Part shown: positions 11,836 to 31,236 of the stretch, piece after piece
Layout: every line of letters starts with the position of its first letter
How positions within the stretch are numbered: position 1 is the first letter of the stretch
Assembly: GCA_001914235.1 (NCBI GenBank)
Contig: MQUF01000003.1
Coordinates: forward strand, 448,225 to 512,224
Direction of reading: 5' to 3'
Source of the DNA: Desulfobulbaceae bacterium DB1
GTDB taxonomy: Bacteria > Desulfobacterota > Desulfobulbia > Desulfobulbales > SURF-16
DNA length: 64,000 nucleotides
Position numbers and translations under genes: made by a program
The notes under the pieces: generated by a model
Database searches by the model: none
What the model was told of the DNA's origin: nothing
The model's input: only the letters and a program-made list of their open reading frames with translations

Positions 11836-11909
11836 GCAGCCCAGCCCTTCACCACGGATGGGCGCAACTCGTTGTCTTGCACCAATCACATGAGAAAGGA
11901 GAGTCCATT

Positions 11910-13229
11910 GTGAAACCGGATACAATCCATATAGTCTTCATTTTAATTTTATCCTGCCTTTCGCCATTTACCGCGGCCATGGCCGATACCGCGGCAAAAG
12001 AGCAAAGAAAATTCATCGAGCCGACCGGCAAAATCACCCTGGCTGATGCCATTGCAGCGGCGTTGGCCAACAATCCGGACATTGCCGCGGCATCCCACGA
12101 AATCAGTGCGCGTCACAACGCGCAGCTCCAGGAAGGAGTGTTCGCCAACCCGACATTTTTCAGTGAGTTCGAGGAATTCGGCGGATCGGGAAACTTCTCG
12201 GACGCTGATGCCCTCGGGGCCAGCGCCGGCATCAGCCAGGAAATACCATTGGCCGGCAAACGGGCCAAACGTGTCCGCATCGCCGAATATGAAACAACTA
12301 TCGCCGGCTTGCAAATGCAGGCAAAAATGCTGGCACTGACACGTGATGTGAAGAAAAAATTTCAGCGCGTCCACTCCCTTGAACAGCAGCTCCTCCTGGA
12401 AAATGAAAACATCGCACTGCTTCAGGATATCCAGGATGTCATTATCAGGCAAATTGCCCTGGGGGATATCCCGCCGCTTGATGAAAGAAAAGCGACTGTT
12501 GAACTCGCCTTGGCGAAATCCGCCCTGGCCCGGGCCGCGAGAGAGCTTGCAGTGGCCCGTATCGAGCTGGCTTCCAGCTGGGGCAGCAGGGAGGTCCATT
12601 TCGATCAAGTTGAACCCGTTGGTCGTGCAATACAGCCTCTCCCAACTGAAGACGAACTCTGGCGGGCGGCGCAGGGACATCCTGAAATGGAAATCAACCG
12701 TATCCGGGTCGAACGGTTCAAGGCATCACTGGCCTTAGCCCAGGCAAAGGCCGTTCCCGACCTGGAAATCGAAGGGGGCGTCAAATATTTTAATGAGTCC
12801 TCCGACCACGCCTATTTCATAGGATTCAGCATACCCATTCCGGTTTTTGACCGCAACCAGGGCGGCATTCGTGAAGCCTCGGAACATATCCGGGCAGGCA
12901 AAAAAGAACTCGACGGCACTGCCAATCGCCTGAGAGCGGAACTGGCTGTCCTGCGTGAACGCCTGCAAATTATCACGGCGGAATTAGAAACAACGGCAAC
13001 GACGATTCTCCCCGCCGCCCAGGAAGCATATGAAGCTCTCGCAAAGGCTTATCAAGCCGGAGAAAAGGATTACCTCGAGCTTCTTGATTCGCAGCGAACC
13101 CTGATTGAGGTCAAACGGCAAAATCTGCTTTTGCAGACTGAACACCAAGAACTGTTGGCCGATCTCGAAGCGATCACGGGAAAAGCTGCCGAATCATTTC
13201 CCCGGAACCATCCGACCCTTTCAGAGTAA
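11910..13229 (+). CDS. czcC: TolC-family outer-membrane efflux protein (CzcC-like)
   Basis: GTG start after AAAGGAGAG and a signal peptide. Two-repeat OEP architecture. It sits first in a C-B-A efflux operon. Confidence 0.85.
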   Translation: MKPDTIHIVFILILSCLSPFTAAMADTAAKEQRKFIEPTGKITLADAIAAALANNPDIAAASHEISARHNAQLQEGVFANPTFFSEFEEFGGSGNFSDADALGASAGISQEIPLAGKRAKRVRIAEYETTIAGLQMQAKMLALTRDVKKKFQRVHSLEQQLLLENENIALLQDIQDVIIRQIALGDIPPLDERKATVELALAKSALARAARELAVARIELASSWGSREVHFDQVEPVGRAIQPLPTEDELWRAAQGHPEMEINRIRVERFKASLALAQAKAVPDLEIEGGVKYFNESSDHAYFIGFSIPIPVFDRNQGGIREASEHIRAGKKELDGTANRLRAELAVLRERLQIITAELETTATTILPAAQEAYEALAKAYQAGEKDYLELLDSQRTLIEVKRQNLLLQTEHQELLADLEAITGKAAESFPRNHPTLSE

Positions 13230-13239
13230 GGAATATCTC

Positions 13240-14574
13240 ATGCGAAACAAAATTATTGTTTTCTTAAGCATCGTATTTTTTGCCGGTGTGCTCGTATCAT
13301 TGCCGCTGGCTTCCCAGGAAGAACGACATGATCATCCCGCTGATCGTGAGGAAATTTCCGACAATCATGCAACCCCACACGGCACTGCCGCAGAACCCCA
13401 TGACGACCATGACGGCCGTGTTGACCAGGAAGAGGACACTCACGCGGAACCTGTCGATAAATCCGACGGGGAAGCCGAACACGAGGAAGAAGAGTTGCTG
13501 CTCACCGATGAGCAAAAAAAAGAAATAGGCATTGCAACCGCACCGGCATCCTCGGGGAAACTCCACTCGGAGCTTACCTTGACCGGAGAATTGATGCTGA
13601 ATGAGGATGCCGTCGCCCATATCGTTCCCCGGGTAAGCGGTGTGGCCGTGCAGGTCGATTTCACCTTTGGGGACACGGTGAAAAAAGGAGATGTCCTGGC
13701 TGTGCTTGAAAGCGCGGAACTGGGCAAATCCATATCCGAATACATGGTAAGCCGTAAAATATATGAAAGAAAACGGAAACTGTATGAAGAAAAAATCGCC
13801 GGCCAGAACGATTACCTTGAAGCCCTCAATCGCTTTGAACAGGTAACCGCGGATCTCTACATGAAGCTGGGCAAAGAAAAATATCTTCAGGCAGCAAGGA
13901 TGTTTGAATCGCGTTACCTTCCCGCAACCGATGAACAGGCACATCCCCAGCCTCTCGCCGACAGCCTTGCCTTTGTCGAAAGGACAACCCGATACGAAAT
14001 TACCGCGCCGATAAGCGGCACGATCATTGAAAAACATCTTACTCGCGGCGAAAAAGTGGGAGAAGACGTCTCCGTCTTCACCATTGCCGATCTAAGTACG
14101 GTCTGGGTCGATCTGCAGGTGCCGACCCGCGATATCTCAAGCATTCAGCAGGGAATGAGTGTCGCCATTGAATCGCAGGACGGGCTGAAAACAGAGGGAA
14201 AGGTCGCCGCAATCAGTCCTGTCGTCGATGCCGAAACCCGTACCGCAACAGCAAGGATTGCCGTGGAAAATCACCGGGGCGACTGGATGCCGGGCTCTTT
14301 TGTCACCGGATCCATCCGTGTTTCCGACGAAAACCTGCCGCTTGTCATACCGCGTAATGCCGTCCAGGGCTTTGAAGGAAAAGAGATCGTTTTTCTGGCC
14401 GATGATCATGGCTTTCGCCATGTTCCGGTTGTCAGCGGCCGCCATGACCGTGACAACGTGGAAATTCTGTCAGGACTCCAGGTCGGCCGGCGCATTGTGA
14501 CAAAGGGTGCCTTTGAGCTGAAAGCCATACTCCAGACCAACGACATGGATTCCCATGCCGGACACGGCCATTAA
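13240..14574 (+). CDS. czcB: RND efflux periplasmic adaptor (CzcB-like) with His/Asp/Glu-rich insert
   Basis: Membrane fusion protein core (ITAPISGTIIEKHL..VWVDLQV). His-rich N-terminal region (HDHPADRE..HATPHG..HDDHDGR..) and C-terminal HAGHGH. Confidence 0.9.
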   Translation: MRNKIIVFLSIVFFAGVLVSLPLASQEERHDHPADREEISDNHATPHGTAAEPHDDHDGRVDQEEDTHAEPVDKSDGEAEHEEEELLLTDEQKKEIGIATAPASSGKLHSELTLTGELMLNEDAVAHIVPRVSGVAVQVDFTFGDTVKKGDVLAVLESAELGKSISEYMVSRKIYERKRKLYEEKIAGQNDYLEALNRFEQVTADLYMKLGKEKYLQAARMFESRYLPATDEQAHPQPLADSLAFVERTTRYEITAPISGTIIEKHLTRGEKVGEDVSVFTIADLSTVWVDLQVPTRDISSIQQGMSVAIESQDGLKTEGKVAAISPVVDAETRTATARIAVENHRGDWMPGSFVTGSIRVSDENLPLVIPRNAVQGFEGKEIVFLADDHGFRHVPVVSGRHDRDNVEILSGLQVGRRIVTKGAFELKAILQTNDMDSHAGHGH

Positions 14575-14585
14575 GGGAGGACGGC

Positions 14586-17500
14586 ATGATCAATAAACTT
14601 GTCGAGTTTGCCCTCAAATTTCCCGGCCTGGTCGTCGTCGGACTCATCGCCGTTCTTTCCCTCGGCATCTATAAATACCAGCATATGCCGGTGGACGCCT
14701 TTCCGGACATCTCCCCTGTCATGGTGCCGGTATTTGCCGAAGGACACGGCATGGCGCCGGAGGAAATCGAACGCCTGATTACCTATCCCATTGAATCGGC
14801 CATGAACGGTCTGCCCAAAGTCACGCAGATAAAGTCGACCTCCGCCTTTGGCATGGCTGTTGTCTATGTCTATTTCGAGGACGATGTTGATATCTATTTT
14901 GCCCGTCAGCTTGTTTCGGAACGTCTGACCAGCGCCATGGCGGAATTACCGGAAATGGACGAACCTCCCGCCCTGGGCCCTATTTCCACAGGTCTTGGGC
15001 AAATATTCATATATTATCTCAAGGCGGATCACGACAAAGTCAGGACAGACGGCAAGGATGTCAACACCTGGCTGCGGGAGTTGAATGACTGGGTTGTGAA
15101 ATTTCAACTGCAGACGGTTCCCGGGGTTACAGAGGTCCTTTCGATGGGTGGCCATGTCCTGCAATACCAGGTGAAAGCAAACCCGAATTCCCTCCGGCGC
15201 TATGGGTTGTCCCTGCAAGACGTGGTGGCCGCCATCAAGGAAAACAACCGCAATGTCGGCGGCCAGTTTCTGGTGCTCGGCTCGGAGGAGCATCTGGTGC
15301 GCGGCGTTGGACTGATTGAGCAGCTTGAGGAATTGCAGAATATACCGGTCAAAGTCAGCAACGGCACACCGGTTTTACTCAAGGATGTGGCTGATGTCGA
15401 TTACGGCAACGAAATCCGTCGAGGCGCCGTGACACTTGACGGCCGCCAGGAAGTCGTTTCCGGCATCGTCATGAAACTCTATGGGGAAAACACCTCCGAT
15501 GTCATCAAAAGACTGCATGCCAAGGTGGCCGAGGTGACAAAGGCGCTGCCCGAGGGTGTGGAACTCGTTCCCTATTACGAGCAGTCCGAACTTGTTGAAA
15601 ACGCCACAGGCACCGTCAAGTCGGCCCTCCTGCAGGGAGGAATCCTGGTTTTGTTCGTCCTGCTGCTTTTCCTCGGGAACTGGCGGACAGCATTCATAGT
15701 TGCCCTGTCCCTTCCCGTATGCGCCCTTTTGGCGGTCATCTTCATGGATTTGCAGGATATTTCAGCCAACCTGATGTCGCTGGGCGGCATTGCAATTGCC
15801 ATCGGCATGCTTGGTGACGGCGCCATTGTCATGGTGGAAAACATTTATCGCCACATGGGTGAACGCAATGAGCTGAATGAACCCAAACTCACGATTATCC
15901 GGAAAGCGGCACGCGAAGTGAGCAGGCCCATCGTCTTTTCCATTGCAATTATTATCGTTGTTTTTCTGCCGATTTTTACCCTGGAAGGCGTTGAAGGAAA
16001 AATGTTTTCCCCGCTGGCGTTTACCGTGTCCTTTGCCCTGTTGGGATCGATATTCGCCGCTCTTCTTCTTGCGCCTGTTCTTTCCCTTTTCCTTCTGCAA
16101 CACCGTGAGAAGAAAGAGTTCCGCCTCATCGTCCTGCTGAAAAACGCATACAGACCCCTGCTTGCCATGGCACTCCGTTTCAAAAAAACAGTGGTGGCCT
16201 TTTCCGCCGGTTGCTTTCTCCTCAGCCTTGCCTCCCTGCAATACCTGGGAACGGAATTTATCCCGACCCTGGAAGAGGGATCCATCTTGATAGGTGTTGC
16301 CATGGCGCCGTCCATTTCCCTGGAAAAGGGCACTGAAACCGTCATGGAAATCGAGCGTAAAATCCTGAAGTATCCCGAGGTGCTGGAAACGGTATCACGC
16401 GTCGGACGCCCGGAAGCAGGCAGTCATCCACACCCCGTCAATTACGCGGAGGTCCATATCACCCTGAAACCACATGACGAATGGAAGCGGTTCAGCAGCA
16501 AGGAAGAGCTTATCGCGGCCCTGGATAAGGAACTGCGGAAAGTACCGGGCGTCCAATTGAACTTTACCCAGCCCATCCAGAACGCTTTTGACGAACTTCT
16601 GTCCGGAATCAAGGCACAGCTTGCCGTAAAGCTGTACGGCGAAGATCTGCACATCCTCCGATCAAAAGCGGATGAAATCAAAAAAGCCATAGACAATATC
16701 CCGGGGCTTGTCGATCTGTCCGTTGAGCAGAGCTTTGGACAGCCCCAGGTTCAGGTTGTCGCGGACCGCGCCGCCTGTGCCCGATACGGCGTCAGCGTCA
16801 GCCGGATTCTTGAGATGGTGGAGATGGCGGTTGGAGGAGAGGTCATCGACAATATTTATCTCAACACGCGACGCTTCGGCATCCATTTACGGTATCAGGA
16901 GAAGTTTCGCGACAACCCCCAGGAAATACGAAACATTTTGCTGTCAACGGCGGACAATAACCTTATCCCTCTCGGGCAGGTTGCGGAAGTGCTTCAGGTG
17001 ACAGGCCCCATTCAGATCAACCGGGAAAAAAATCAGCGCCGCTGGATTATTCAGGGAAATATTCGCGGTCGGGACATGGGAAGCGTTGTCGAGGACATCC
17101 AACAGAGGATTGCGGAAACGATAACTCTGCCGCCCGGATACACCATCGAATATGGCGGGCAATTTGAAAATCAGCAGCGGGCAATGTCCCGGCTGGCCCT
17201 CATTGTACCCATTGTCATCGGCAGCGTTTTTCTCATGCTGTGGATGACATTCGGCACATTCCGCCATGCCTTCATCATCATCTTCAATGTCCCCCTTTCC
17301 CTTATCGGCGGCATAATCGGGCTCTTTCTCATGAAAGAATATCTCTCTGTTCCCGCTTCTGTCGGATTCATCGCCCTTTTCGGCATCGCCGTGCAGAACG
17401 GCATGGTCCTGGTGAGCTATTTCAACGACTTGCGAGACCGAGGAAAAGCGATCCACGAGGCGGTGATGGATGGCGCATTGCTTCGTTTGCGGCCGGTGCT

Positions 17501-17696
17501 GATGACTGCGGCCACAACAGTTCTCGGCCTGCTGCCGCTGCTTGCCGCCCAAGGCATCGGTGCTGAAATCCAGCGTCCGCTGGCCTCTGTTGTTATCTTT
17601 GGGCTCACCACCTCCACCATGCTCACCCTTTTTGTCATACCTGCCGTGTACAGCTGGATAGAAGACTACAATGAAAAAAGGAGGGAAATCCGATGA
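14586..17696 (+). CDS. czcA: Heavy-metal efflux RND transporter, CzcA/CusA family
   Basis: 1036 aa with 12-TM RND topology and family-typical N-terminus MINKLVEFALKFPGLVVV..AFPDISPVMV. Confidence 0.95.
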   Translation: MINKLVEFALKFPGLVVVGLIAVLSLGIYKYQHMPVDAFPDISPVMVPVFAEGHGMAPEEIERLITYPIESAMNGLPKVTQIKSTSAFGMAVVYVYFEDDVDIYFARQLVSERLTSAMAELPEMDEPPALGPISTGLGQIFIYYLKADHDKVRTDGKDVNTWLRELNDWVVKFQLQTVPGVTEVLSMGGHVLQYQVKANPNSLRRYGLSLQDVVAAIKENNRNVGGQFLVLGSEEHLVRGVGLIEQLEELQNIPVKVSNGTPVLLKDVADVDYGNEIRRGAVTLDGRQEVVSGIVMKLYGENTSDVIKRLHAKVAEVTKALPEGVELVPYYEQSELVENATGTVKSALLQGGILVLFVLLLFLGNWRTAFIVALSLPVCALLAVIFMDLQDISANLMSLGGIAIAIGMLGDGAIVMVENIYRHMGERNELNEPKLTIIRKAAREVSRPIVFSIAIIIVVFLPIFTLEGVEGKMFSPLAFTVSFALLGSIFAALLLAPVLSLFLLQHREKKEFRLIVLLKNAYRPLLAMALRFKKTVVAFSAGCFLLSLASLQYLGTEFIPTLEEGSILIGVAMAPSISLEKGTETVMEIERKILKYPEVLETVSRVGRPEAGSHPHPVNYAEVHITLKPHDEWKRFSSKEELIAALDKELRKVPGVQLNFTQPIQNAFDELLSGIKAQLAVKLYGEDLHILRSKADEIKKAIDNIPGLVDLSVEQSFGQPQVQVVADRAACARYGVSVSRILEMVEMAVGGEVIDNIYLNTRRFGIHLRYQEKFRDNPQEIRNILLSTADNNLIPLGQVAEVLQVTGPIQINREKNQRRWIIQGNIRGRDMGSVVEDIQQRIAETITLPPGYTIEYGGQFENQQRAMSRLALIVPIVIGSVFLMLWMTFGTFRHAFIIIFNVPLSLIGGIIGLFLMKEYLSVPASVGFIALFGIAVQNGMVLVSYFNDLRDRGKAIHEAVMDGALLRLRPVLMTAATTVLGLLPLLAAQGIGAEIQRPLASVVIFGLTTSTMLTLFVIPAVYSWIEDYNEKRREIR

Positions 17697-18034
17697 AAAG
17701 AATTGTTGCCGTCATCAAGCCCATTATGCTGGATGACGTTATTTTTGCCCTGCATCAGATTAAGGATTTTCCCGGCGCCACCATGACGGAAGTCCGTGGA
17801 ATGGGACGGGGATTTCAACGGTATGTTCAGCAAAACAGTCCGGATTTTGCATTCGGGTATCCGGCGCAAGTGCGCATCGAAATTATTTGCCGGGAAAATC
17901 AAACAGAGGCGATTGTCAATACTCTTGAGCAAAGCGCCCGCACGGGAAAATCCGGAGACGGTAAAATTTTTATTTCCCCTGTGGATGAGGCTGTCCGTAT
18001 ACGAACAGGCGAACGTGGCGATGGGGTGATCTGA
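17693..18034 (+). CDS. P-II (GlnB-like) family protein coupled to czcA
   Basis: MKRIVAVIKPIMLDDVIFAL..GDGKIFISPVDEAVRIRTGERG matches the P-II fold signature. Its ATG overlaps the czcA stop (ATGA). Confidence 0.85.
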   Translation: MKRIVAVIKPIMLDDVIFALHQIKDFPGATMTEVRGMGRGFQRYVQQNSPDFAFGYPAQVRIEIICRENQTEAIVNTLEQSARTGKSGDGKIFISPVDEAVRIRTGERGDGVI

Positions 18035-18149: not shown

Positions 18150-18566
18150 CTATTCGCTCGAAGCGCTGCGGCAGGCCTCATCAAGACGGGTTTCAACGTA
18201 GCGGACAAGTTCATCATCCCGCTGTTCAATATCAAAGCAGACGGCATCCTCACCGAGCAGACCACCGGGAACAAAAGCACCTTTTTCTTCCGGGTCGGTT
18301 ATCATTTCGCTGTAAAAACACACGGAAAGCCAGCGCGGGCTGTCTTCAATCACATCGACCATGACAAAAAGCCCTTTTTTTTTCTGCGCGGCATGGACAG
18401 CCCGGAGTGAATAGGTGAGGCCCGGCCTGGGGACGAATGCCAGGGAGACTCCCTCTTTTCGACCGAGGTATTCCCTGAAACGCCAAAAGACATCTCGGTT
18501 TCCTTCAGGCGTTTCCTGCCACTCCTTCATAAAAGCAATAAGCTCTGAATCCGTTTCTTTTCCCAC
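18150..18566 (-). CDS. Hypothetical protein
   Basis: 138-aa ORF with coding-like composition. No motif recognised. Confidence 0.45.
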   Translation of the reverse strand: MGKETDSELIAFMKEWQETPEGNRDVFWRFREYLGRKEGVSLAFVPRPGLTYSLRAVHAAQKKKGLFVMVDVIEDSPRWLSVCFYSEMITDPEEKGAFVPGGLLGEDAVCFDIEQRDDELVRYVETRLDEACRSASSE

Positions 18567-18643: not shown

Positions 18644-21100
18644 CTAAAAACGAATGATCGCCCCGGCCCCCCAGCCGAAATCGGAATGCCATTGGCCGAT
18701 CAGGGAAAAACTTTTCGACAGCATGTACGTGAGGCCCGCCTTGCCTTCCCATTGTGCGGCATGGGTATCATATTCGGCTTCACCGATCAGGGCCAGGCGC
18801 GGGGTCAGGGCGAATTCCTTGTCAAAGGAAAAACGACCGCCGCCGTCGCTGTCCAGCCAATAGCGGGACTCAATCAGCAGCGGCAGCAGCCAGGTGACAC
18901 CCACAACTCCACGGGAATGTTCCGTATCGCTGCCCTGCCCCAGCATATCGAACCCGGCAAACACGGTGAAAAAACGATTGATATACCTGTCCCAGGACAG
19001 AAATCCTTCCCACTCATTTTTATCGACACGCTGCCAGCCCGACTCCCATTCCGCTGAAAGGGTGTTGCGGGTGCCGGCAGCCGTTAAAAAAACCTCGGCC
19101 ATGTTGCTTGTCAACGCAGCCTCGCCCCAGGAGTGCCACATATCAATGTAAAGTTGCGGACGGATGGCGGCAACCTCGTCCGGCATCACAAAATTATCGT
19201 AGTGAAGCAGGCGGGCCATGCCGCTTTCCATGTGGTAAAGGAGATGGCAGTGAAAAAACCAGTCTCCGGTTTCGTTGGCGTCAAATTCGATAACCGTGGT
19301 GGACATGGGAGCGACATTGACCGTGTGTTTCAGCGGCGCATGATCGCCCTGTCCATTGACAACCCGGAAAAAATGGCCGTGCAGATGCATGGGATGATGC
19401 ATCATGGTGCGGTTGATCATAATGAAACGGACAATCTCGCCCTGGCTCACCGGAATGACGTCGGTCTCGGAAAGCGCCTGGTTGTTCATAAACCAGACAT
19501 AGCGTTCCATATCCCCGTCCAGGGTTAGCCGGATTTCCCGCACCGGCCTGTTGCCGGCAAAGGCGGTTGCGGAGACGGCCCGCAATTTTTCATAAGGCGG
19601 CCATGGACGGCTCTGATCCATGCCGTCCATGGCAAGACTGCCGGCCGAGGAAACATCGGAAGCCATCGGCCGGAAATCAGCGCCGTATTTTTTGCCGTTC
19701 CGTTCACCCCGGTCTCTTGTCCTTTGCTGTTGCGGCGCCATGTCCCCCATGTCATGACCGGCGTGGCTGACAACAGGTTGCGCCGCTTCACCTTCCCCCC
19801 TGCTTTCCGTGGTCGGGGCGGCATGACTCTCCATACCATGCCCCGTATGCGGGGAACCCGCGCCATGATCCATGCCGGGCATAACCGGTTTCTCCATCAT
19901 CTCCATCCGGTCCATGCCATGCCCCACATGACCCATGTCACCCATGTCATCCATGCCGCCCATTGCCGTCATGCCGGGTTTGTCGAACATGCCGGCGGAG
20001 ACCGCATCATCATCCATGCCCATTGAGGCCGCCGGGTTCAAAGCGAACAGGGTGCCCAGGCTGAGATCGCCCATGGCATGATAGAGATTCGGTTTCGGCA
20101 CATCGGGCGCGGGACGGGAATCACCAGTGCCGAGCCACACCGAGGTGAAACCCGACCCATCGTGGGCGGTTGCCCGCAATTCGCAAGCGCCTTTTTGCGG
20201 AACCGTGATGAGCACGTCATAGGTCTCCGCAACGCCGATGAGCAAACGTTCCGTTTCCACCGGTTCCACATCGATACCGTCGGCCGCGATGATCCGCATG
20301 GGGCCGCCGGCGAATTCAAGGTGAAAAAAGGTGGTGGAGGAGCCATCAATGATTCGCAACCGGATTGTTTCTCCCGGTTGGGCGTCAAGATGCATTTCCG
20401 TGCTGCCGTTGGCAAGAAAACGGTCATAGGCGACATCGGCGATGTCCATGGCCGGCATGCGCCCCAGCTCGCGCTTGAAATAATCGGCAAGCATGCCGAG
20501 ACGAATGGCGCCGACTATACTTTGCGCGCTGCCCTTTTCAACGGCAAACCACTCGCTGCCGCGTTTCAGGGTGCGGATAATCTGGTGCGGGTCTTCATCG
20601 GCCCAGTCGGAAAGCAGGATCACATAATCACGGTCAGCCGGGAAACGGGGAACAGTGGGCTCGATGACAATGGCGCCGTACACGCCGCGTTGCTCCTGCA
20701 GACCGGTATGGGAGTGATACCAGTAGGTTCCGCTCTGCCGAATGGGAAACTCATAGGTAAAAGTAGTACCCGGGGCGATTGGCGGAAAGCTGACATACGG
20801 AACCCCGTCCATGCCGGGGGGCACCAGGATGCCGTGCCAATGAAGAGAGGTTTCGACAGCCATTCTGTTGCTGACGTGAATACGGGCGAGATCCCCCTCC
20901 CGGAACCGTAATACCGGACCGGGAATGGAGCCGTTGATGGTCATCGCCGTGGTCGGCGTGCCGGTGATATCGACAGCCTGAGAGGCAATTTCAAGGTGGT
21001 ACTGACTGGTTTTCGCATGCACCGTTGCCAGACCGAGCAGGACCATGATGACGGTGATCACGGGTTGCCATAAAAAGAATATGCGTTTTTCCCGGGGCAT
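18644..21100 (-). CDS. Multicopper oxidase (CopA-like) fused to a C-terminal CopB-like outer-membrane domain
   Basis: Cu-site motifs HWHG, YWYHSH, HPMHLHGH and HCHLLYHMESGM, plus a Met/His-rich linker. The last ~190 aa resemble the CopB barrel (..GVVGVTWLLPLLIESRYWLDSDGGGRFSFDKEFALTPRLALIGEAEYD..) and end in a terminal Phe. The start is set to ATG 21100, after AAAAAGGAGA. Confidence 0.85.
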   Translation of the reverse strand: MPREKRIFFLWQPVITVIMVLLGLATVHAKTSQYHLEIASQAVDITGTPTTAMTINGSIPGPVLRFREGDLARIHVSNRMAVETSLHWHGILVPPGMDGVPYVSFPPIAPGTTFTYEFPIRQSGTYWYHSHTGLQEQRGVYGAIVIEPTVPRFPADRDYVILLSDWADEDPHQIIRTLKRGSEWFAVEKGSAQSIVGAIRLGMLADYFKRELGRMPAMDIADVAYDRFLANGSTEMHLDAQPGETIRLRIIDGSSTTFFHLEFAGGPMRIIAADGIDVEPVETERLLIGVAETYDVLITVPQKGACELRATAHDGSGFTSVWLGTGDSRPAPDVPKPNLYHAMGDLSLGTLFALNPAASMGMDDDAVSAGMFDKPGMTAMGGMDDMGDMGHVGHGMDRMEMMEKPVMPGMDHGAGSPHTGHGMESHAAPTTESRGEGEAAQPVVSHAGHDMGDMAPQQQRTRDRGERNGKKYGADFRPMASDVSSAGSLAMDGMDQSRPWPPYEKLRAVSATAFAGNRPVREIRLTLDGDMERYVWFMNNQALSETDVIPVSQGEIVRFIMINRTMMHHPMHLHGHFFRVVNGQGDHAPLKHTVNVAPMSTTVIEFDANETGDWFFHCHLLYHMESGMARLLHYDNFVMPDEVAAIRPQLYIDMWHSWGEAALTSNMAEVFLTAAGTRNTLSAEWESGWQRVDKNEWEGFLSWDRYINRFFTVFAGFDMLGQGSDTEHSRGVVGVTWLLPLLIESRYWLDSDGGGRFSFDKEFALTPRLALIGEAEYDTHAAQWEGKAGLTYMLSKSFSLIGQWHSDFGWGAGAIIRF

Positions 21101-21174
21101 TGGCGTCTCCTTTTTTGCCGGTCGCGCTTCCACAGACATGATGAATCAATCCTACATATTCACCGGGCAAAAAG

Positions 21175-21804
21175 TCAAAAAAATTCCCGGCCGGATTTCC
21201 CATGGGCATCAAAACGCTCCATGGACTGCCCTCGGGCAATGATACTTTCCAGCTCGGAAACCTTTTTCGCGCAGATACCGACAATGTCCGCCATCATTTC
21301 GGAAACCTGATCATCCTCGCCCAGAAGAGTTTGCGCTTTGCGCAGCAAGTTTTCCCCTTGGGCCAGGTAGCTCTCCATATCTTTATGCAACAAGGCCCGG
21401 TTCTTCTGCTTCTGCTGCTCCGCATCTATCACCGGCAGCAGCCGCTGAATGGAAACCTCCACCAGCACATCCCGCGGAATGTTCCGTTGCCGGGCAACCA
21501 GGTCCAGCACCTCCAGGGAGCGCCTGCTGAGCACAAAGGTCTTCTGCCGCCGCTCCCCGTTTTCCGGGCTGTACTCATGGGCCTTTTTCGCAACTTTATC
21601 AAGCACGCTCACATCCTCGACAAGCTGATCGAACAGGGATTTCTGCTTGAGATTAAGATGCGCGGCAACGATGCCCAGAAGGTCAATGATATGGATCGGC
21701 AACCTGAAGGTGGCCCGCACCGACTGCTTTCCCTTGAGCCCTTCCGCGGAAATAAACAATCCCGCATATTCGGAAGAATTTTCCCCGTCTTTTGTTTTTC
21801 CCAT
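21175..21804 (-). CDS. Hypothetical protein, predicted helical/coiled
   Basis: GAGGGAGG precedes ATG 21804. Length is 209 aa. No family recognised. It lies 74 nt upstream of the oxidase gene on the same strand. Confidence 0.55.
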   Translation of the reverse strand: MGKTKDGENSSEYAGLFISAEGLKGKQSVRATFRLPIHIIDLLGIVAAHLNLKQKSLFDQLVEDVSVLDKVAKKAHEYSPENGERRQKTFVLSRRSLEVLDLVARQRNIPRDVLVEVSIQRLLPVIDAEQQKQKNRALLHKDMESYLAQGENLLRKAQTLLGEDDQVSEMMADIVGICAKKVSELESIIARGQSMERFDAHGKSGREFF

Positions 21805-22000
21805 AATGACCTCCCTCACAGGACCAGTTATCTTATATTACTATATTTATTTTTACATAAAAAGTAATTAATGAGAAAAAATCATAAAAAATAAATATGC
21901 GACATTGACAACACTCTTGATGTAATTATTTTTTTATCAAAGAAAAGCGCAGCAAAAAAAGTCTGATCCCAAAAATGAAAATAAAAAAAGGAGGTACACT

Positions 22001-22447
22001 ATGTGGACACGGTGGAATGACATTGATCGCATGTTTACTGCCATGGATCTGCTGCAATCCAGAATGAACCGGATTTTCCCTGATTACGACAGATTCCGGG
22101 TAATGCCGGCCGGCTGGGGCGTGACGGAAAGCGGACCCAGGACAAATCTCTACGATGCCGGTGACCATTTTGAAGTCAAGGTCGAAGTTGCGGGTCTTGC
22201 CAAAGAGGACCTCAACATCAAGATTCAGGGCAACTATCTTGAGATAAGCGGCACCAGAAAAGCGGATGCGCCGGAAGGATACACCGCCCACCGGGTGGAA
22301 CGTGGCACCACGTCCTTCACCCGCAGTTTCACCCTGCCTGCGGATGTCAATGCGGACAAGGTGAAGGCAACGCTGCTGAATGGACTGCTGACTCTGGCAT
22401 TACCGAAATCAGAGGCGGCAAAACCGAAACAGATCACCGTCAACTGA
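22001..22447 (+). CDS. Hsp20/alpha-crystallin small heat-shock protein
   Basis: AGGAGG RBS. Alpha-crystallin domain (FEVKVEVAGLAKEDLNIKIQGNYLEISG..FTRSFTLP..GLLTLALPK). Confidence 0.9.
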   Translation: MWTRWNDIDRMFTAMDLLQSRMNRIFPDYDRFRVMPAGWGVTESGPRTNLYDAGDHFEVKVEVAGLAKEDLNIKIQGNYLEISGTRKADAPEGYTAHRVERGTTSFTRSFTLPADVNADKVKATLLNGLLTLALPKSEAAKPKQITVN

Positions 22448-22477: not shown

Positions 22478-22864
22478 ATGACCGATAGAAACGATATTGT
22501 GAAAAGAGAAGAAACCATGCCGGAAAGAAGCCGTGAGTTGCCGGCAGTTGTGCCTCTTGTCGACATATATGAAAATGAGGATGAAATTCTGCTTTACGCC
22601 GATATGCCGGGCGTGGAAAAAAACAACATCACCATCAATATAGAAAACGGCAAACTCGCCCTCTCCGCCATCCGCAAAATTACGGCAAGCGGCGCTGCGG
22701 GCTGGGAGGAGTTCAGCGACGTGGAGTATCAACGAACCTTTTCCGTGCCCCAGGCCATTGATGTCGGCAAAGTCAATGCGGAATTAAAAGACGGCGTCCT
22801 GCGTCTCCACCTGCCGAAATCAGAGGCGGCAAAACCGCGGCAGATCGAAATAAAAGCCGGCTGA
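22478..22864 (+). CDS. Hsp20/alpha-crystallin small heat-shock protein (second paralogue)
   Basis: ILLYADMPGVEKNNITINIENGKLAL..YQRTFSVP..GVLRLHLPKSEAAKPRQIEI. Confidence 0.9.
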   Translation: MTDRNDIVKREETMPERSRELPAVVPLVDIYENEDEILLYADMPGVEKNNITINIENGKLALSAIRKITASGAAGWEEFSDVEYQRTFSVPQAIDVGKVNAELKDGVLRLHLPKSEAAKPRQIEIKAG

Positions 22865-23106: not shown

Positions 23107-23835
23107 ATGCGACTGGCCATTATTTCCGACATCCACGGCAATTACCGGGCCCTGCAGGCTGTCTTGCGGGATATCGACGCCATCGGCGTGGATGATATCA
23201 TCTCGCTGGGTGACAATATCGGCTATGGACCGGAACCGGAAGAGGTGGTGCAGACCCTGCTGCAACGAAAAATCGATTCGGTCATGGGCAATCACGAGCT
23301 CGGCCTGGCCAGCGCCAGCGCCTTGCAACGACTCAATGCGAGTCCACGCCTTTCCCTTGAACTCACCCGGCAACTGATGACAAAAGAGTCCCTGCAATTC
23401 TCCATATCCCTGCCGCCCTTTCTGGTCCGCCACAAGACCCGTTTTGTCCACGGCTGCCCACCCGCATCAATTACCGCCTATCTCTGGAACCCCACCGAAA
23501 CGCGACTGTCGCGGCTCTTTGCCGGTTATGCCGAAACCATCTGTTTTTTCGGCCATACCCACAATCTCTCCCGCTTTCAAAGGCGAGCGGAACGCTGCTT
23601 CACGGAAAACGCCGGCCTGGGGGAATTTGCATTGCTGCCGGATGCCCGATACATCATCAACCCCGGCAGCGTCGGGCAACCCAGGGATACAATCAACAAC
23701 AAGGCCAAATACGGCATCTGGCATATGGATACGATGCTTTTTGAACAGCGGGCCGTGAGCTATGATGTGCAAGCCACGGTTGCCCTGCTCGCGGAACGCG
23801 AATTCCCCTCATCGAACGCGATCAGGCTTCTTTGA
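23107..23835 (+). CDS. Metallophosphoesterase with PPP-like motifs (possible Ser/Thr phosphatase partner)
   Basis: Motifs ISDIHGN (DxHG), SLGDNIGYG (GDxx..G), MGNHE (GNHE) and GHTH. Confidence 0.85.
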   Translation: MRLAIISDIHGNYRALQAVLRDIDAIGVDDIISLGDNIGYGPEPEEVVQTLLQRKIDSVMGNHELGLASASALQRLNASPRLSLELTRQLMTKESLQFSISLPPFLVRHKTRFVHGCPPASITAYLWNPTETRLSRLFAGYAETICFFGHTHNLSRFQRRAERCFTENAGLGEFALLPDARYIINPGSVGQPRDTINNKAKYGIWHMDTMLFEQRAVSYDVQATVALLAEREFPSSNAIRLL

Positions 23836-23848
23836 GCGAAATCAGGTC

Positions 23849-25172
23849 ATGGAAAAAATAGGTCGCTATCACATTCTACGCAAGCTCGGCAGAGGAGGAA
23901 TGGGCTCGGTCTACAAGGCCGTCGTACCGGTCATCAACAAGGTGGTGGCGATAAAAGTCCTGGACCCCTTTGAAACGCTCGTCGCCCTCCTTGGAAATGA
24001 AAGGTTGCGGGAAATTTTCACATTCGAGGCGGTGACGATGGCCGGCCTCCACCATCCCGGGGTGGTCGATGTCTGGGACTTTGGAGAAGACGAACAGGGA
24101 CGGCCTTATTTTGTCATGGAGTTCTTCTGCAATAACCTGGGCAATATGACGGGCGAGAGCTTCCAGATGGAAAAGGCCTGCCGCCGCATCAACCCGGACA
24201 AGGTCCTCAGCTATGGCAGGCAGATTCTCGATGGTCTTGCCTGCCTGCACCACAACCAGATTATCCACCGGGATATCAAGCCGTTCAACATCCTGATAAC
24301 AGATGAAGACCGGGCCAAGATCTGCGATTTCGGCATGGCGCTTTCAAAAGGATTTTCTTTTTCCGAACCAAAAAAAAATGCAGATCGGGTCACCTTACTA
24401 TGCAGCCCCCGAACAGGCGAGTCATCCGGACAGGGTTGACGGCCGGGCCGACCTCTATTCAGCCGGGGTGCTGCTTTACCGCATGCTGACCGGAGAACTG
24501 CCGAGCATGCGCAGTTTTTCCCTGAGCCGGGTGAATCCCCTCTATGATAATGCCTGGGACGATTTTTTTTCAAGGTCGCTGAGCCTCCATCCCGACAATC
24601 GTTTCCAGACGGCTGACGACATGGCGGAGGGTTTGAATCGACTCCATGTCCACTGGCAGACCGTCACCAGGCAGCAGACGTTGCAAAACCCAAAAAAGAA
24701 AAACGAGAAAAGGATCATCCTGCGCAAGGAGCCGAAAAACGTCTGCGGGAAAAAGGCCCGGATCCTTTTCGGCCTGAACGAAATGCACCGCCCTGACAAC
24801 GCCGTTCCAAACCACTTCATCAATGCGGAAAAAGACATCATCCTTGACGAGGCAACCGGGCTTTTCTGGCAGCATGACTGCAACCAATACAGCCTGTCCT
24901 GGCAGGCAGCCGTGGACTATGTCGCAACCCTCAACAGTCAAGCGTTTGCCGGCAAAAACAACTGGCGGCTGCCCACGGTAAACGAACTCGTCTCATTATT
25001 GCGCGAAGAGGCCTGGCAATCCGCAACAACCCCCTTTGCCGATCGGGGAAAATGGTTGTGGAGCTGCGATCGCCATGGCGAAAGAGATGCCTGGTATGTC
25101 AACATGGATATGGGTTTTGCCGACTGGCAGGATATCACCTGCCGCAACTTTGCCCGGGCGGTCTCCGGCTAA
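23849..25172 (+). pseudogene. Ser/Thr protein kinase with C-terminal DUF1566-like domain, reading frame broken in an A9 run
   Basis: The first frame carries GRGGMGSVYKA, VAIKVL, HRDIKPFN and DFG. The next frame carries SPYYAAPEQ and the rest of the kinase. The DUF1566-like end is NNWRLPTVNELVSL..WSCD. The switch occurs at A9 (24370-24378); A8 would give one continuous frame. Confidence 0.8.
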
Positions 25173-27099: not shown

Positions 27100-30000
27100 A
27101 TGAAACTAATTACCTTTTCCATTAATGCAGTCGAATTGACGGTAGCCGGCGGCACCACCATTCTGGACGCCGCGGAAAAAATCGGCATACCCATACCAAC
27201 CCTTTGCCGTGTAGCGGACAAATCCGAGGCAGACTGCGGCATCTGCGCAGTGGAATGCGAAGGCAGCGAAGAATTGCTTCGGGCATGCAGCACGCAGGCT
27301 GCAGCCGGCATGGTCATCCGCACGGACACCGAAACGGTGAAGAAATACCGGCAAAAGCAACTGACTCGCCTCGCGGCAACCCATTTCGGCGACTGCAAGG
27401 CTCCCTGCAATCTGACCTGCCCCGGCCAGATTAATGTCCAGGGTTATATCGCCCATGTCGCAAAAGGACAGTATGAAGAGGCGGTTCGCCTGATCATGGA
27501 ACGCAACCCCTTTCCCTTTTCAGTGGGGCGTGTCTGCCCCCGTTTCTGCGAAACCCGCTGCCGGCGCATTCTGGTTGATGAGCCTGTTTCCATCAACCAC
27601 CTGAAACGATTTGTCGCGGACTGGTGCATGGCGAACAAGATTGATCTCAAAATCCGCCGCCGATCGCTGACCGGAAAAAAAGTGGCGGTGGTGGGCGGCG
27701 GCCCGGCGGGGCTCACCGCCGCCTACTTTCTGGCCGAAAAAGGTCACGCGGTTACGGTGTTTGAGGCCAATGACAAACTTGGCGGCATGCTGCGCTATGG
27801 CCTGCCGGAATACAAGATTCCCAAAAAGATCCTGGATTACGAAATCAGCAGCATTCTGCGCCTTGGAATCTCAGTACAGCTCAACCAGCACTGGGGGAGA
27901 GACTTTACCCTGGCAAGCCTGAATGAGCAAGGTTTTGACTCGGTGCTGCTGACCATCGGCACCACCGTTGACCAGCCTCTTGAAATTCCGGGTGCAACCC
28001 TGAACAATGTGCTGCCGGCTACCCGGTTTCTCCACATGGTCAATGAAGAGGTGGGAAGGGATTACGGCCGAAGAGCCGCTGTGATAGGCGGCAACAATGT
28101 GGCCATGGAAACGGCCCGCTGCCTGCTCCGCAACAATGTGGACCAGGTGACCATCATCTATCCCCGGGCGCAGCTCGAGATGCCGGCCAACCAGCGAAAC
28201 ATCCGTGAGGCGGAAAGGGAAGGAGTTCAGTTTCTACTCATGGCCTCCCCCATTCAGATCATGGAAAAAGACGGCGGTCTCGAGCTGGAACTGATCCGCA
28301 TGAAACTGGGAGAGGCTGACGCCAGAGGAATCCGCCTGCCGGTGGCCATCCCCGGATCCGCCAATATTCTCAAGGTGGATACGGTAATCTATGCATTGGG
28401 ACAGTCGGCCTGCGGGGAAGAGGGCATTCCCGGTGACCGGCAGGCGGACGACCTTGAATTCACCCCCGGCAACATTATCAAGGCCAACCCGAGAACCTCG
28501 CTTACCAATCTTGCTGATGTTTATGCCGCAGGCGATGCGACAAGCGGCCCCCGATCCGTCATCCAAGCCGTTGTTTCAGCCCGGCGAGCCGCGGAAAACA
28601 TCCACGCCGCACTTATGGCGGTGAGTAAAGAACCGGCCGACAGCCGTTTTAATTTTTCCCGCGGCCGATCATTTGATGACGTTGACATGCGCAACTTCGA
28701 CGGGGTCAAGGTGCGATTGCGGGAAAAAATGCCGTCACGGCCGCCGGAGCGATGCATCCAGGATTTCGACGAGGTCAAACTCGGTTTCACTGAACAGATG
28801 GCCAGGCGGGAGGCGGCACGATGCCTTTCCTGCGGCTGCACCGCTTTTGACCGGTGCGATTTCAAGCGACTGTGCATCGAAAATTTCGTTGATCCGAACA
28901 AAACCGGCATGGGGACGTCCCCGCGCTACAAAAAGGATCTGTCCCATCCTGTCATTGCGGTTGATCTCGACAAGTGCGTCTTCTGCCGGCGCTGCGTCAA
29001 TTCCTGCCAATACGGGGCCCTGGAGATGTCAGCCGCCTCCCTTGACAACGAAGGCCGGCCCCAGGAAATACGTCTTCGTTTCAATGAAAAATGCACCCAC
29101 TGCGGCCAATGCGTCGACAGCTGCTCAACCGGCGCCCTGAACAAAAAAGACATGTCCGTGCCGATCACGGGCGAAGCGACACGGGAGATACGCACCACCT
29201 GCCCTTACTGCGGGGCCGGCTGCCAGATGCTGCTCAAGGTGAAGGGCAATACCATCATGGAGGTGGAGTCGGAGCCTGATCTGGCACCCAATTACGGCGC
29301 GCTCTGCGTTAAGGGACGCTTTGCCTTTAACTTCATTCATCATCCGGACCGTCTGACTCGCCCGTTGATCAGGCGGAACGGCCAGCTGGTGGAGACCTCC
29401 TGGGAAGAGGCCTTAAATCATGCGGCAAAACGTTTTTTTGATATCAAGGCGATGTATGGCGCGGACGCCATTGCCGGATTTTCCTGCGCCCGGGCAACCA
29501 ACGAAGAAAATTATCTGATGCAGAAATTCATGCGTACAGCGATCGGCACCAACAATATCGATCATTGTGCACGACTTTGACACGCGCCAACCGTGGCCAG
29601 TCTGGCCATCACTTTCGGCAGCGGCGCAATGACAAACTCCATTGCCGATGCAGTCAACGGCAAAACCGATCTCTTTCTGATGATCGGCAGCAATCCCGAC
29701 ACCAGCCATCCCACCATCGGCCTGCGCATCCACCAGGCCGTTGATCGAGGAGCCAAGCTGATCGTCATCGATCCGCGCAAAACAAAACTTGCCGAGCGGG
29801 CCGATCATTGGCTGCGCATTCTTCCCGGTACCGATGTGGCAATGCTGAACGGACTGATGCACATCATCATCGAGGAGGACCTCTGGGACAAGGAGTTTGT
29901 CGCGGAGCGTACCGAAGATTTCGATGAGCTGCGCACCCTGGTGAAAAAATATCCGCCGGAGATGGTGGCCCGCATCACCGGCATCACCGCTGAGCAACTG

Positions 30001-31236
30001 CGCCGTGTGGCCCGCATGTATGCCGCTCCGGGCCGGCACGCCATATACCACGGGATGGGAATCACCCATTACACCACCGGCACCGATCGAGTTAAATCCA
30101 TCGCCAACCTGGCGATGCTCTGCGGCAAGGTCGGGATGGAGGGCGGCGGCTGCAACCCCCTGCGCGGACAGAACAACGTCCAGGGCGCCTGCGACATGGG
30201 CGCCCTGTTCAACACCCTGCCGGGCTACGGCGGGCTGGATGACGACGACCTGTTCGATTGCTACGAAAAACTCTGGAATGTCAAACTGCCGCGGCGTCCC
30301 GGCAAACCCGCCACCGAGGTGTGGGACAACATCATGAAGGGAGACATCCGCGCCCTCTACATCTTCGGGGAGGATCCGGCCATTGCCGACGCCAATATCG
30401 GTCATGTGCGTCAGGCACTGGAGGAAGTCGATTTCCTGGTGGTGCAGGATATTTTTCTCACTGAAACCGCCAAGGCAGCGGACGTGGTGTTTCCTGCCGC
30501 CTGTTTCGCCGAGAAAGACGGCACCTTTGCCTCCACCGAACGGAGGGTGCAGCGGGTGCGCAAAGCGGTGGATCCACCCGGTGATGCGAAACCGGACTGG
30601 CGGATCTTCTGCGAACTGTCCCGTAAGATGGGTTATCCCCTCGAGTACGAAAGCGTTGAGCATATATTTCAGGAAATCGCTTCCATTCTCCCCCAATACC
30701 GGGGTATAAGCTATAAACGGCTTGATACCGTCGGTCTGCAGTGGCCGGTGCCTGATGCGGACCATCCAGGCACCCCGGTGTTGCATATCGGCAATTTCAC
30801 CCGGGGCAAGGGCTTATTTGTTGCCGAGGACTATATCCCGCCGCAGGAACCGGTAAACGATGAGTACCCGTTGCTCTTTACCACCGGCCGCCATTATGCC
30901 CGGTACAACTTCAGCAGCATGACCGGCAAAACCCTGGAGATCGATGATATCGCGCCCGAGGCACTGGCTGAGATCAACCCGAAAGACGCCGAACAGATGG
31001 GAATCAACGAAGGCGACATATTGCGCCTGACATCGCGGCGCGGCGCAGTCACCATCAAGGCGACCATTACCGATCGAACCCAGCAGGGCACCGTTTTCAC
31101 CACCTACAACTACCATGACACGCCGGTCAACCTTCTTACCCTGGATGCACTGGATCGTTTGTCCCGTACCCCGGAATACAAGCTCTGCGCAATCAGAGTA
31201 GAGGTGGTTGAGAAAAAAACATCTTGTGAGAGATAA
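27100..31236 (+). CDS. fdhA: Selenocysteine-containing formate dehydrogenase alpha subunit fused to 2Fe-2S ferredoxin, GltD-like NAD(P)H-FAD oxidoreductase and 4Fe-4S domains (TGA 29578-29580 read as Sec)
   Basis: Track ORFs 27100-29580 and 29593-31236 are in the same frame and are joined by ..[32 protein letters not shown], the FdhF/FdhA Sec motif. N-terminal 2Fe-2S region (CRVADKSEADCGICAVEC). GltD-like dinucleotide folds (VAVVGGGPAGLTAAYFLA, AAVIGGGNVAME). Two CxxCxxCxxxC ferredoxin motifs, then the MopB cluster CPYCGAGC. Confidence 0.9.
29578..29620 (+). promoter_or_regulatory. SECIS element for the FdhA selenocysteine codon
   Basis: Hairpin TGGCC-AGTCT-GGCCA begins 16 nt after the U of UGA. 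G and U sit at positions 23 and 24 from the UGA, the same positions as the SelB-contacted G23/U24 in the E. coli fdhF apical loop. Confidence 0.75.

Follow-up and report, generated by a model that had tools for sequence, protein, structure and literature searches.

The closest described relatives of the gene reported here are the copper-resistance pairs CopA/CopB and PcoA/PcoB, each consisting of a multicopper oxidase (MCO) and an outer-membrane partner. The crystal structure of PcoB revealed a 12-stranded barrel with both termini in the periplasm and an electronegative pore (PMC9210255). pcoB has never been found without pcoA, the two genes are translationally coupled, and a model of docking and hand-over has been proposed for their products (PMC3548706, PMC9210255, PMC12509749). 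PcoA is stabilised, and perhaps docked, by the disordered N-terminal region of PcoB (PMC12509749), and the direction of transport through PcoB is disputed, with import (PMC9210255) set against efflux (PMC12509749). The cooperation of PcoA/CopA with PcoB/CopB is still argued; the only grounds for a direct contact between PcoA and PcoB are their co-occurrence, their translational coupling and their mutual stabilisation. Fused PcoA-PcoB proteins of five Legionella species have been cited as evidence of an interaction, in one sentence (Hernandez-Montes et al. 2012, PMC3548706). Here we describe a gene of Desulfobulbaceae bacterium DB1 located at 18644..21100 on the minus strand of the window, i.e. 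the whole stretch of 64,000 nucleotides that was analysed (contig MQUF01000003.1, positions 448,225 to 512,224). A first-pass annotation of this DNA had proposed that the gene encodes an oxidase and a CopB-like barrel as one polypeptide, and our analysis confirms that observation.

The complete fusion gene encodes 818 amino acids (aa) and closes with a stop codon at 18644-18646. In the list of open reading frames (ORFs) the frame is entered as 18644..21139 (minus strand, 831 aa) and thus begins further upstream. Translation probably does not start at the first ATG of this frame. Most likely, it begins at the ATG at 21100, because a canonical ribosome-binding site, AAGGAG (21107..21112, minus strand), can be read 6 nt upstream of it and close homologues have N-termini that line up with this methionine. 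The boundaries 18644-21100 given in the first-pass annotation agree with both lines of evidence, and full-length homologues support the completeness of the gene.

Judged from its sequence, the N-terminal stretch of 630 aa is a three-domain MCO that is CopA/PcoA-like. Three Pfam cupredoxin domains follow one another in the expected order on the minus strand, each well over its cut-off: Cu-oxidase_3 as domain 1 (20657..20980; E 1.3e-44, 151.6 bits), Cu-oxidase as domain 2 (20192..20629; E 6.9e-22, 78.7 bits) and Cu-oxidase_2 as domain 3 (19205..19537; E 4.7e-35, 120.8 bits). All four copper motifs that had been claimed could be located in the 818-aa protein. HWH (87-89) and HSH (129-131) are held by domain 1, HPMHLHGH (569-576) and HCHLLYHMESGM (617-628) by domain 3, so that the series HxH, HxH, HxxHxH, HCHxxxHxxxxM that defines the group is present in full. 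In 137 aligned relatives the motif columns for His, Cys and Met are invariant or at least 90% conserved. The NCBIfam model TIGR01480 (copper_res_A), matched from position 43 to 589 of its 593 positions, gives 421.7 bits and thus stays below its cut-off of 478.95, and NF008205 scores 120 bits. The three-domain MCO fold of the oxidase part is supported by Foldseek (E 1e-34), with matches to three-domain MCOs generally, Fet3p ranking at the top and ascorbate oxidase, laccases and CueO being among the others. An insert rich in Met, His, Gly and Asp was recognised from its composition at aa 355-459 (19724..20038, minus strand), close to the rough position of 19790-20030 suggested earlier; it contains 16.2% Met and 7.6% His, compared with 4.2% and 4.4% in the remaining oxidase, and is predicted to be disordered, with a predicted local distance difference test (pLDDT) value below 50 at aa 381-463. 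CueO has a Met-rich sequence as well (PMC12509749, ref. 11), and by analogy the insert is likely a Cu(I)-binding loop.

Beyond residue 633 the protein continues for 185 aa and ends with ...GWGAGAIIRF. We assign aa 656-818 (18647..19135, minus strand) to a putative CopB/PcoB-like outer-membrane beta-barrel of 12 strands, based on a structural model, Foldseek, hhalign and a profile match in the PDB. The relationship is not obvious from the single sequence. Against the Pfam family CopB (PF05275) the whole protein reaches 17.7 bits (E 0.003), with aa 698-796 aligned to positions 42-142 of the 208 positions of the hidden Markov model (HMM), and the isolated C-terminal domain reaches 21.6-21.8 bits, below the gathering threshold of 27 bits. 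A phmmer search of the PDB with the single C-terminal sequence found nothing. In the PDB, a shallow profile built from close relatives matched nothing but a designed barrel, and its comparison with four canonical CopB/PcoB proteins from annotated plasmids gave an unconvincing hhalign probability of 38%. The link to CopB became clear only with a diverse profile. When 1.84 billion representative proteins were searched exhaustively with an HMM, 339 matched at E<=1e-3, and those with the N-terminus present are mostly oxidases of 650-916 aa that carry the domain C-terminally. From these 339 matches we drew 65 sequences with 18-66% identity to the query. Their profile aligned with the four canonical proteins over 113 collinear columns (hhalign probability 96.4%, E 1.2e-9), and in the PDB it found PcoB (7pge_B, E 5.2e-5) as the sole significant natural protein. 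Each of the four canonical proteins in turn received 23-40 bits from the family HMM. When the 65 members were scanned singly with Pfam, CopB was the commonest match (20/65) and the rest were almost all outer-membrane barrel families; a precomputed PF05275 label is also attached to two fragments. The collinearity with CopB noted in the first-pass annotation is therefore borne out by the diverse profile, whereas the PF05275 match of the single sequence is borderline and stays under the threshold. Since both PF05275 and TIGR01480 score below their cut-offs, both halves are divergent from characterised proteins. From sequence profiles and models we conclude that the C-terminal domain represents a divergent sister group of the CopB/PcoB barrel, homologous and with the same fold, that is not PF05275 by the curated threshold.

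The extreme C-terminus carries a candidate beta-signal, ...GAGAIIRF (18647..18673, minus strand). In the consensus recognised by the beta-barrel assembly machinery (BAM), positions -6, -3 and -1 are occupied by G, a hydrophobic residue and F, respectively, and the motif fits this pattern. The terminal Phe, already pointed out as an outer-membrane hallmark, is shared by 118/120 close homologues; canonical CopB proteins end in WF or VF. No His/Met-rich disordered N-terminal domain stands before the barrel; what comes ahead of it is an ordered linker of 20 aa and, before that, the oxidase. The sole tract of that kind sits within the oxidase, about 175 aa upstream.

An AlphaFold2 model of the C-terminal domain, built with the 65-sequence alignment, reached a pLDDT of 96.5 and a predicted template modelling score (pTM) of 0.84. 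It consists of a short helix (residues 7-16 of the domain) followed by 12 beta-strands connected by very short turns, in accordance with the barrel that had been suspected. The best PDB match of this model in Foldseek is PcoB (7pge; E 5.7e-7, template modelling (TM) scores 0.57/0.53), and the next matches are other 12-stranded barrels, such as KdgM, OMPLA and the designed TMB12. In the strands, hydrophobic residues alternate with polar or acidic ones, and the net charge of -11 (family median -6) makes the domain strongly acidic, like canonical CopB barrels. The domain is thus predicted to form a 12-stranded antiparallel barrel with both termini in the periplasm. The full-length protein was modelled with 137 full-length sequences (pLDDT 88, pTM 0.87), and aa 381-463, which correspond to the Met/His-rich loop, are its only disordered stretch. 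The linker at aa 635-655 (19136..19198, minus strand) appears ordered in the AlphaFold models, with two small helices (641-644 and 647-651 in the full-length model) and a pLDDT of 93-95. The high pTM together with the ordered linker suggests a defined packing of the oxidase on the barrel.

The fusion is not unique to the window and represents a large family present in many phyla. A whole-protein search returned more than 120 clusters with 60-98% identity, nearly all of which cover 94-99% of the query and measure about 800 aa. The fused architecture is found in 120/120 top clusters, and the length of the C-terminal extension is nearly constant. Using the C-terminal domain alone in tblastn, we matched 22 plasmids of cultured bacteria, including Hymenobacter, Spirosoma, Mucilaginibacter, Pontibacter and the fusobacterium Ilyobacter polytropus; every match falls inside a gene annotated as 'multicopper oxidase domain-containing protein', and in Hymenobacter, Spirosoma and Ilyobacter the plasmids are closed. 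A scan of one genome per species with one narrow C-terminal motif detected the domain in at least 116 species. As only this single motif was used, the number is a lower bound and biased to close relatives. The carriers belong to the Thermodesulfobacteriota, Nitrospirota, Nitrospinota, Verrucomicrobiota, several candidate phyla and others, with the cultured sulfate reducer Halodesulfovibrio spirochaetisodalis JC271 among them. We inspected the reading frames of the best 80 loci from these 116 species: 67 have an uninterrupted frame with a full oxidase, eight are cut by a contig end and five have an interrupted frame. A free-standing gene for the domain with its own signal peptide is not present among these 80 loci. 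The continuous frame recurs in hundreds of assemblies made independently of one another, which practically rules out a missed stop codon.

When the domain by itself served as query in word-indexed homologue searches, most matches were fragments. Apparent stand-alone proteins of about 194 aa (P0129-P0140) proved to be gene-calling fragments that start at a Met inside HCHxxxHM, and are not separate copB genes. Two rare and distant copies of 212 aa are genuine stand-alone barrels, neither of them with an adjoining oxidase. One (P0301, locus L087, 5001-5639) has its own signal peptide and begins 9 nt after a gene for an Fe/Mn superoxide dismutase; the other (P0276, locus L089, 5001-5639) has neighbours that are not metal-related. 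A protein of 3469 aa (P0306) gave 13 separate short matches to the end of the barrel profile (positions 138-172), and it is probably a repetitive beta-rich protein and not a family member.

The leader has the features of a Sec-type signal peptide (aa 1-29; 21014..21100, minus strand), with MPREKR followed by a hydrophobic core and VHA, and aa 3-24 are helical in the model; cleavage is predicted before K30. No twin-arginine motif occurs in this leader (MPREKRIFFLWQPVITVIMVLLGLATVHA), as had been noticed before. In 139 full-length relatives the leaders are likewise short and Sec-like and show no conserved RR; an RRx-hydrophobic pair within the first 45 aa is present in only seven of them. The PcoA/CopA proteins of Klebsiella, Pseudomonas mandelii and Ralstonia carry the RRxF motif (classical S/RRRxF) of the twin-arginine translocation (Tat) pathway. 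On the other hand, the copA of the Acinetobacter lwoffii plasmid pH7-68 (2426-4249 of locus L004), which is separate from copB, encodes a Sec-type leader without twin arginine, and hence Tat dependence is not universal in the CopA family. The absence of the motif from the leader thus holds, but it is less unusual than the first-pass annotation had it. Outer-membrane barrels must arrive at the BAM complex unfolded, and Tat carries folded proteins. For this reason the fusion would require the Sec route, and we infer that copper is inserted in the periplasm.

The genomic surroundings of the gene point to metal stress. A heavy-metal efflux operon of the resistance-nodulation-division (RND) type (11877-18034, plus strand), encoding an outer-membrane factor, a CusB-like adaptor and a CusA-like pump of 1036 aa, converges on the 3' end of the fusion gene. 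Behind the CusA-like gene in this operon, with a 4-nt overlap, there is a gene for a P-II-family protein of 113 aa. A second CopB-like ORF is not found in the window. Pfam gives no match for two flanking ORFs on the minus strand, 18150-18566 (138 aa) and 21175-21819 (214 aa), and neither is kept next to the fusion in 60 related loci; owing to this lack of conservation we do not count them in the system. Within 4 kb in these 60 loci the only recurrent neighbour is a P-type ATPase (13/60), which looks like a copper exporter when its sequence is read. Metal-sensor or two-component genes are nearby in a few of the loci. CusCBA, YHS and Metal_resist genes lie near a distant relative, and the Ilyobacter copy is accompanied by heavy-metal sensors and a two-component system. 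Neither copC nor copD is among the conserved neighbours within 4 kb in the 60 loci, and the window was not scanned specifically for either. From these gene contents the fusion gene seems to work on its own and to be associated with stress from copper or heavy metals. Upstream of it, in a gap of 75 nt, a sigma-70-like promoter match (TTGACT-18-TAGGAT; 21149..21178, minus strand) may be present; promoter matches across the region are at chance level (4 found, 2.8 expected), and the position of this one is all that makes it suggestive. A terminator scan was likewise no better than chance.

Taken together, it appears fairly probable that the gene is a single-chain version of the CopA/CopB (PcoA/PcoB) copper-resistance pair, in which a tethered oxidase passes Cu(II) to its own channel. 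We infer localisation, topology, substrate, copper hand-over and transport of the protein as follows. The precursor would be exported unfolded via Sec, and its C-terminal 163 aa would be inserted by BAM through the C-terminal beta-signal to give a 12-stranded outer-membrane barrel with both ends in the periplasm. The oxidase of about 600 aa would fold and gain copper in the periplasm, where the short, rigid linker of about 20 aa would keep it at the periplasmic mouth of the barrel. The Met/His-rich loop may catch Cu(I), the oxidase may convert it into Cu(II) with O2, and the acidic lumen of the barrel may provide a path for Cu(II) over the outer membrane, the direction of flow being as unsettled as it is for PcoB. 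The stabilising and possible docking role of the N-terminal region of PcoB fits this model well. In the fusion, the oxidase itself stands where PcoB has this region.

Several points weigh against this reading. Both the oxidase and the barrel half are under their curated cut-offs (TIGR01480 and PF05275, respectively), and the PF05275 gathering score is reached by none of the 65 family members, the best E-value being 1.8e-5. D760, which aligns with the copper ligand E207 of PcoB, is acidic here but varies across the family. The barrel lacks the disordered N-terminal region, rich in Met and His, that PcoB requires for its function in Caulobacter (PMC12509749). The docking of the oxidase on the barrel was read solely from pTM and pLDDT. 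The oxidase requires O2, but most carriers come from lineages usually regarded as anaerobes. Finally, the barrel could be an anchor alone.

The last point leads to a different explanation, according to which the barrel does nothing but hold an oxidase, cuprous or otherwise, at the periplasmic side of the outer membrane, its likeness to CopB being due to descent and no transport taking place. Positions that are invariant across the whole family are limited to Gly, Pro and Leu, few residues of the lumen are conserved, and the lack of conservation at the position of E207 and the absence of the Cu-binding N-terminal region of PcoB speak for such an anchor. The loops are also very short throughout, and designed or closed barrels match the model as well. 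However, conservation in the close family reaches at least 90% at many charged and aromatic residues, the domain is acidic (-11; family median -6) in the manner of canonical CopB barrels, and the nearest relative in both sequence and structure is a copper channel. A lipoprotein anchor would also be a much cheaper tether than a 12-stranded barrel. Overall, we consider a pure anchor rather unlikely. Another reading sees in the protein a fused porin-oxidase that acts on Fe(II) or Mn(II), either at the outer membrane or across it, as a copper-enzyme analogue of the cytochrome-porin Cyc2 without a part in copper resistance. It draws on the bioinformatic proposal of PcoAB as a porin-MCO system for Fe(II) oxidation and on the ferroxidase activity of P. 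aeruginosa PcoA (PMC5566968). Many carriers stem from sediments and redox interfaces, and the ferroxidase Fet3p is the top structural match of the oxidase part. Yet this match is generic to three-domain MCOs, with laccases scoring nearly equal, and the Met/His-rich loop is a hallmark of MCOs that handle Cu(I). Moreover, the neighbours are genes for copper or heavy-metal resistance and not for electron transfer, no periplasmic electron carrier is encoded nearby, and an oxidase of 60 kDa cannot fit in a 12-stranded barrel, all of which makes an iron or manganese oxidase improbable. A broader variant, in which the fusion is more than a detoxification device and acts as a self-contained outer-membrane redox module, a counterpart of Cyc2 with a copper enzyme, that oxidises Fe(II), Mn(II) or external Cu(I) arriving through its own barrel or at the mouth of it, seems to us less probable still. 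If true, it would imply an unrecognised route of metal oxidation in the envelope of sediment and redox-interface bacteria of many phyla.

The layout of Sec leader, N-terminal passenger, short helix, C-terminal 12-stranded barrel and terminal Phe is formally that of a type Va-like autotransporter, in which the barrel would export the oxidase to the cell surface, and the barrels of the NalP translocator, intimin and invasin do appear at ranks 25-32 in Foldseek (E about 1e-3). The dimensions speak against it, as the barrel comprises about 163 aa with very short strands where 250-300 aa would be expected, and the linker helix of about 10 residues is too short for spanning the pore. In the model the linker is ordered and packed instead of threaded, the TM scores to NalP are 0.37/0.26 vs 0.57/0.53 to PcoB, and neither the protein nor any of the 65 family members has an Autotransporter match in Pfam. 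A copper-loaded three-domain oxidase would also be an unlikely passenger. Overall, surface display is highly improbable. An artefact, in which a missed stop codon or a frameshift in the assembly joined separate copA and copB genes, is conceivable in principle, since the canonical genes are adjacent and often overlap by a few bases (PMC12509749), so that one base error could fuse them, and interrupted frames do occur in 5/80 related loci. But the same continuous architecture and linker length recur in 120/120 top clusters, in 67/80 species genomes and on closed plasmids. Between the domains there is neither a second signal peptide nor a Met/His-rich N-terminal region, and the linker is conserved and modelled with high confidence. 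The artefact explanation is effectively refuted, and we assign it a negligible chance.

Elsewhere in the window, two tandem genes for Hsp20/alpha-crystallin proteins (22001-22447 and 22478-22864, plus strand) are located just upstream of the oxidase locus. A Ser/Thr protein kinase is encoded in pieces by two overlapping ORFs on the plus strand, 23762-24439 (Pkinase 1-145) and 24303-25172 (Pkinase 153-200, then Lcl_C), and their sequences indicate a frameshift, a pseudogene or a sequencing error. Further downstream, one large molybdopterin oxidoreductase seems to be split by a single stop codon into ORFs 27100-29580 and 29593-31236 (plus strand). The former contains 2Fe-2S, GltD-like Fer4_20/Pyr_redox_2, 4Fe-4S and Molybdop_Fe4S4 domains and ends at position 81 of the Molybdopterin model, which the latter picks up at position 98. 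This domain pattern by itself suggests an in-frame selenocysteine codon in a subunit resembling formate dehydrogenase.

For the unresolved mechanism of PcoA and PcoB, a widespread natural covalent fusion provides strong comparative evidence that oxidase and barrel form one physical unit. According to the model, the fusion would set the stoichiometry of oxidase and barrel to 1:1 and place the oxidase at the periplasmic mouth of the barrel, and it offers a confidently modelled single-chain target for structural and transport work. Its leader suggests that a CopA-type oxidase can use the Sec route, which bears on the metallation of MCOs. With regard to annotation, several hundred entries named 'multicopper oxidase domain-containing protein' hold an outer-membrane domain that is missed by Pfam thresholds. 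The concept of a PcoA-PcoB fusion is already known from Legionella, and the fusion of adjacent, translationally coupled genes is unsurprising in itself. Beyond the remark on Legionella, we found no description of another CopA-CopB or MCO-porin fusion in the searchable literature, and McoL of Legionella, described as periplasmic, could not be linked to the fusion. The new points are that the fused family is large and broadly distributed, that its divergent barrel goes unrecognised by Pfam, that the oxidase stands in place of the N-terminal region of PcoB, that the leaders are consistently Sec-type and that a confident single-chain model is available. The value of these findings lies in their implications for the PcoA-PcoB mechanism and for MCO maturation.

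In comparison with known systems, the fusion stands closest to CopA/CopB of P. syringae and PcoA/PcoB of E. coli and Caulobacter (PDB 7PGE). It shares with them the three cupredoxin domains, the four copper motifs and the Met-rich insert of the oxidase, the fold of the 12-stranded barrel with detectable homology, and the context of copper or heavy-metal resistance. The order of oxidase and barrel in the fusion is that of the genes copA and copB. Whereas the fusion is one polypeptide, the known pairs are encoded by two genes; its leader is Sec-type, whereas that of PcoA/CopA is Tat; and where PcoB has its disordered His/Met-rich N-terminal domain, the barrel of the fusion has the oxidase. The fused PcoA-PcoB proteins of Legionella embody the same concept, an oxidase and an outer-membrane partner in one gene, but they belong to Gammaproteobacteria and were reported without an analysis of structure, export route or distribution. 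CueO, the periplasmic cuprous oxidase of E. coli, resembles the fusion in its three-domain MCO fold and in having a Met-rich region close to the substrate site, but is soluble, Tat-exported and without a membrane partner or barrel. Cyc2, the cytochrome-porin of iron oxidisers, also joins an N-terminal redox domain to a C-terminal outer-membrane barrel in one Sec-exported protein. However, its redox module is a single haem instead of a four-copper oxidase of 60 kDa, and there is no sequence relationship between the two. The barrel of Cyc2 is larger, with the cytochrome thought to sit inside, and Cyc2 serves to take up electrons from outside the cell instead of detoxifying metals (PMC5566968, PMC9040806).

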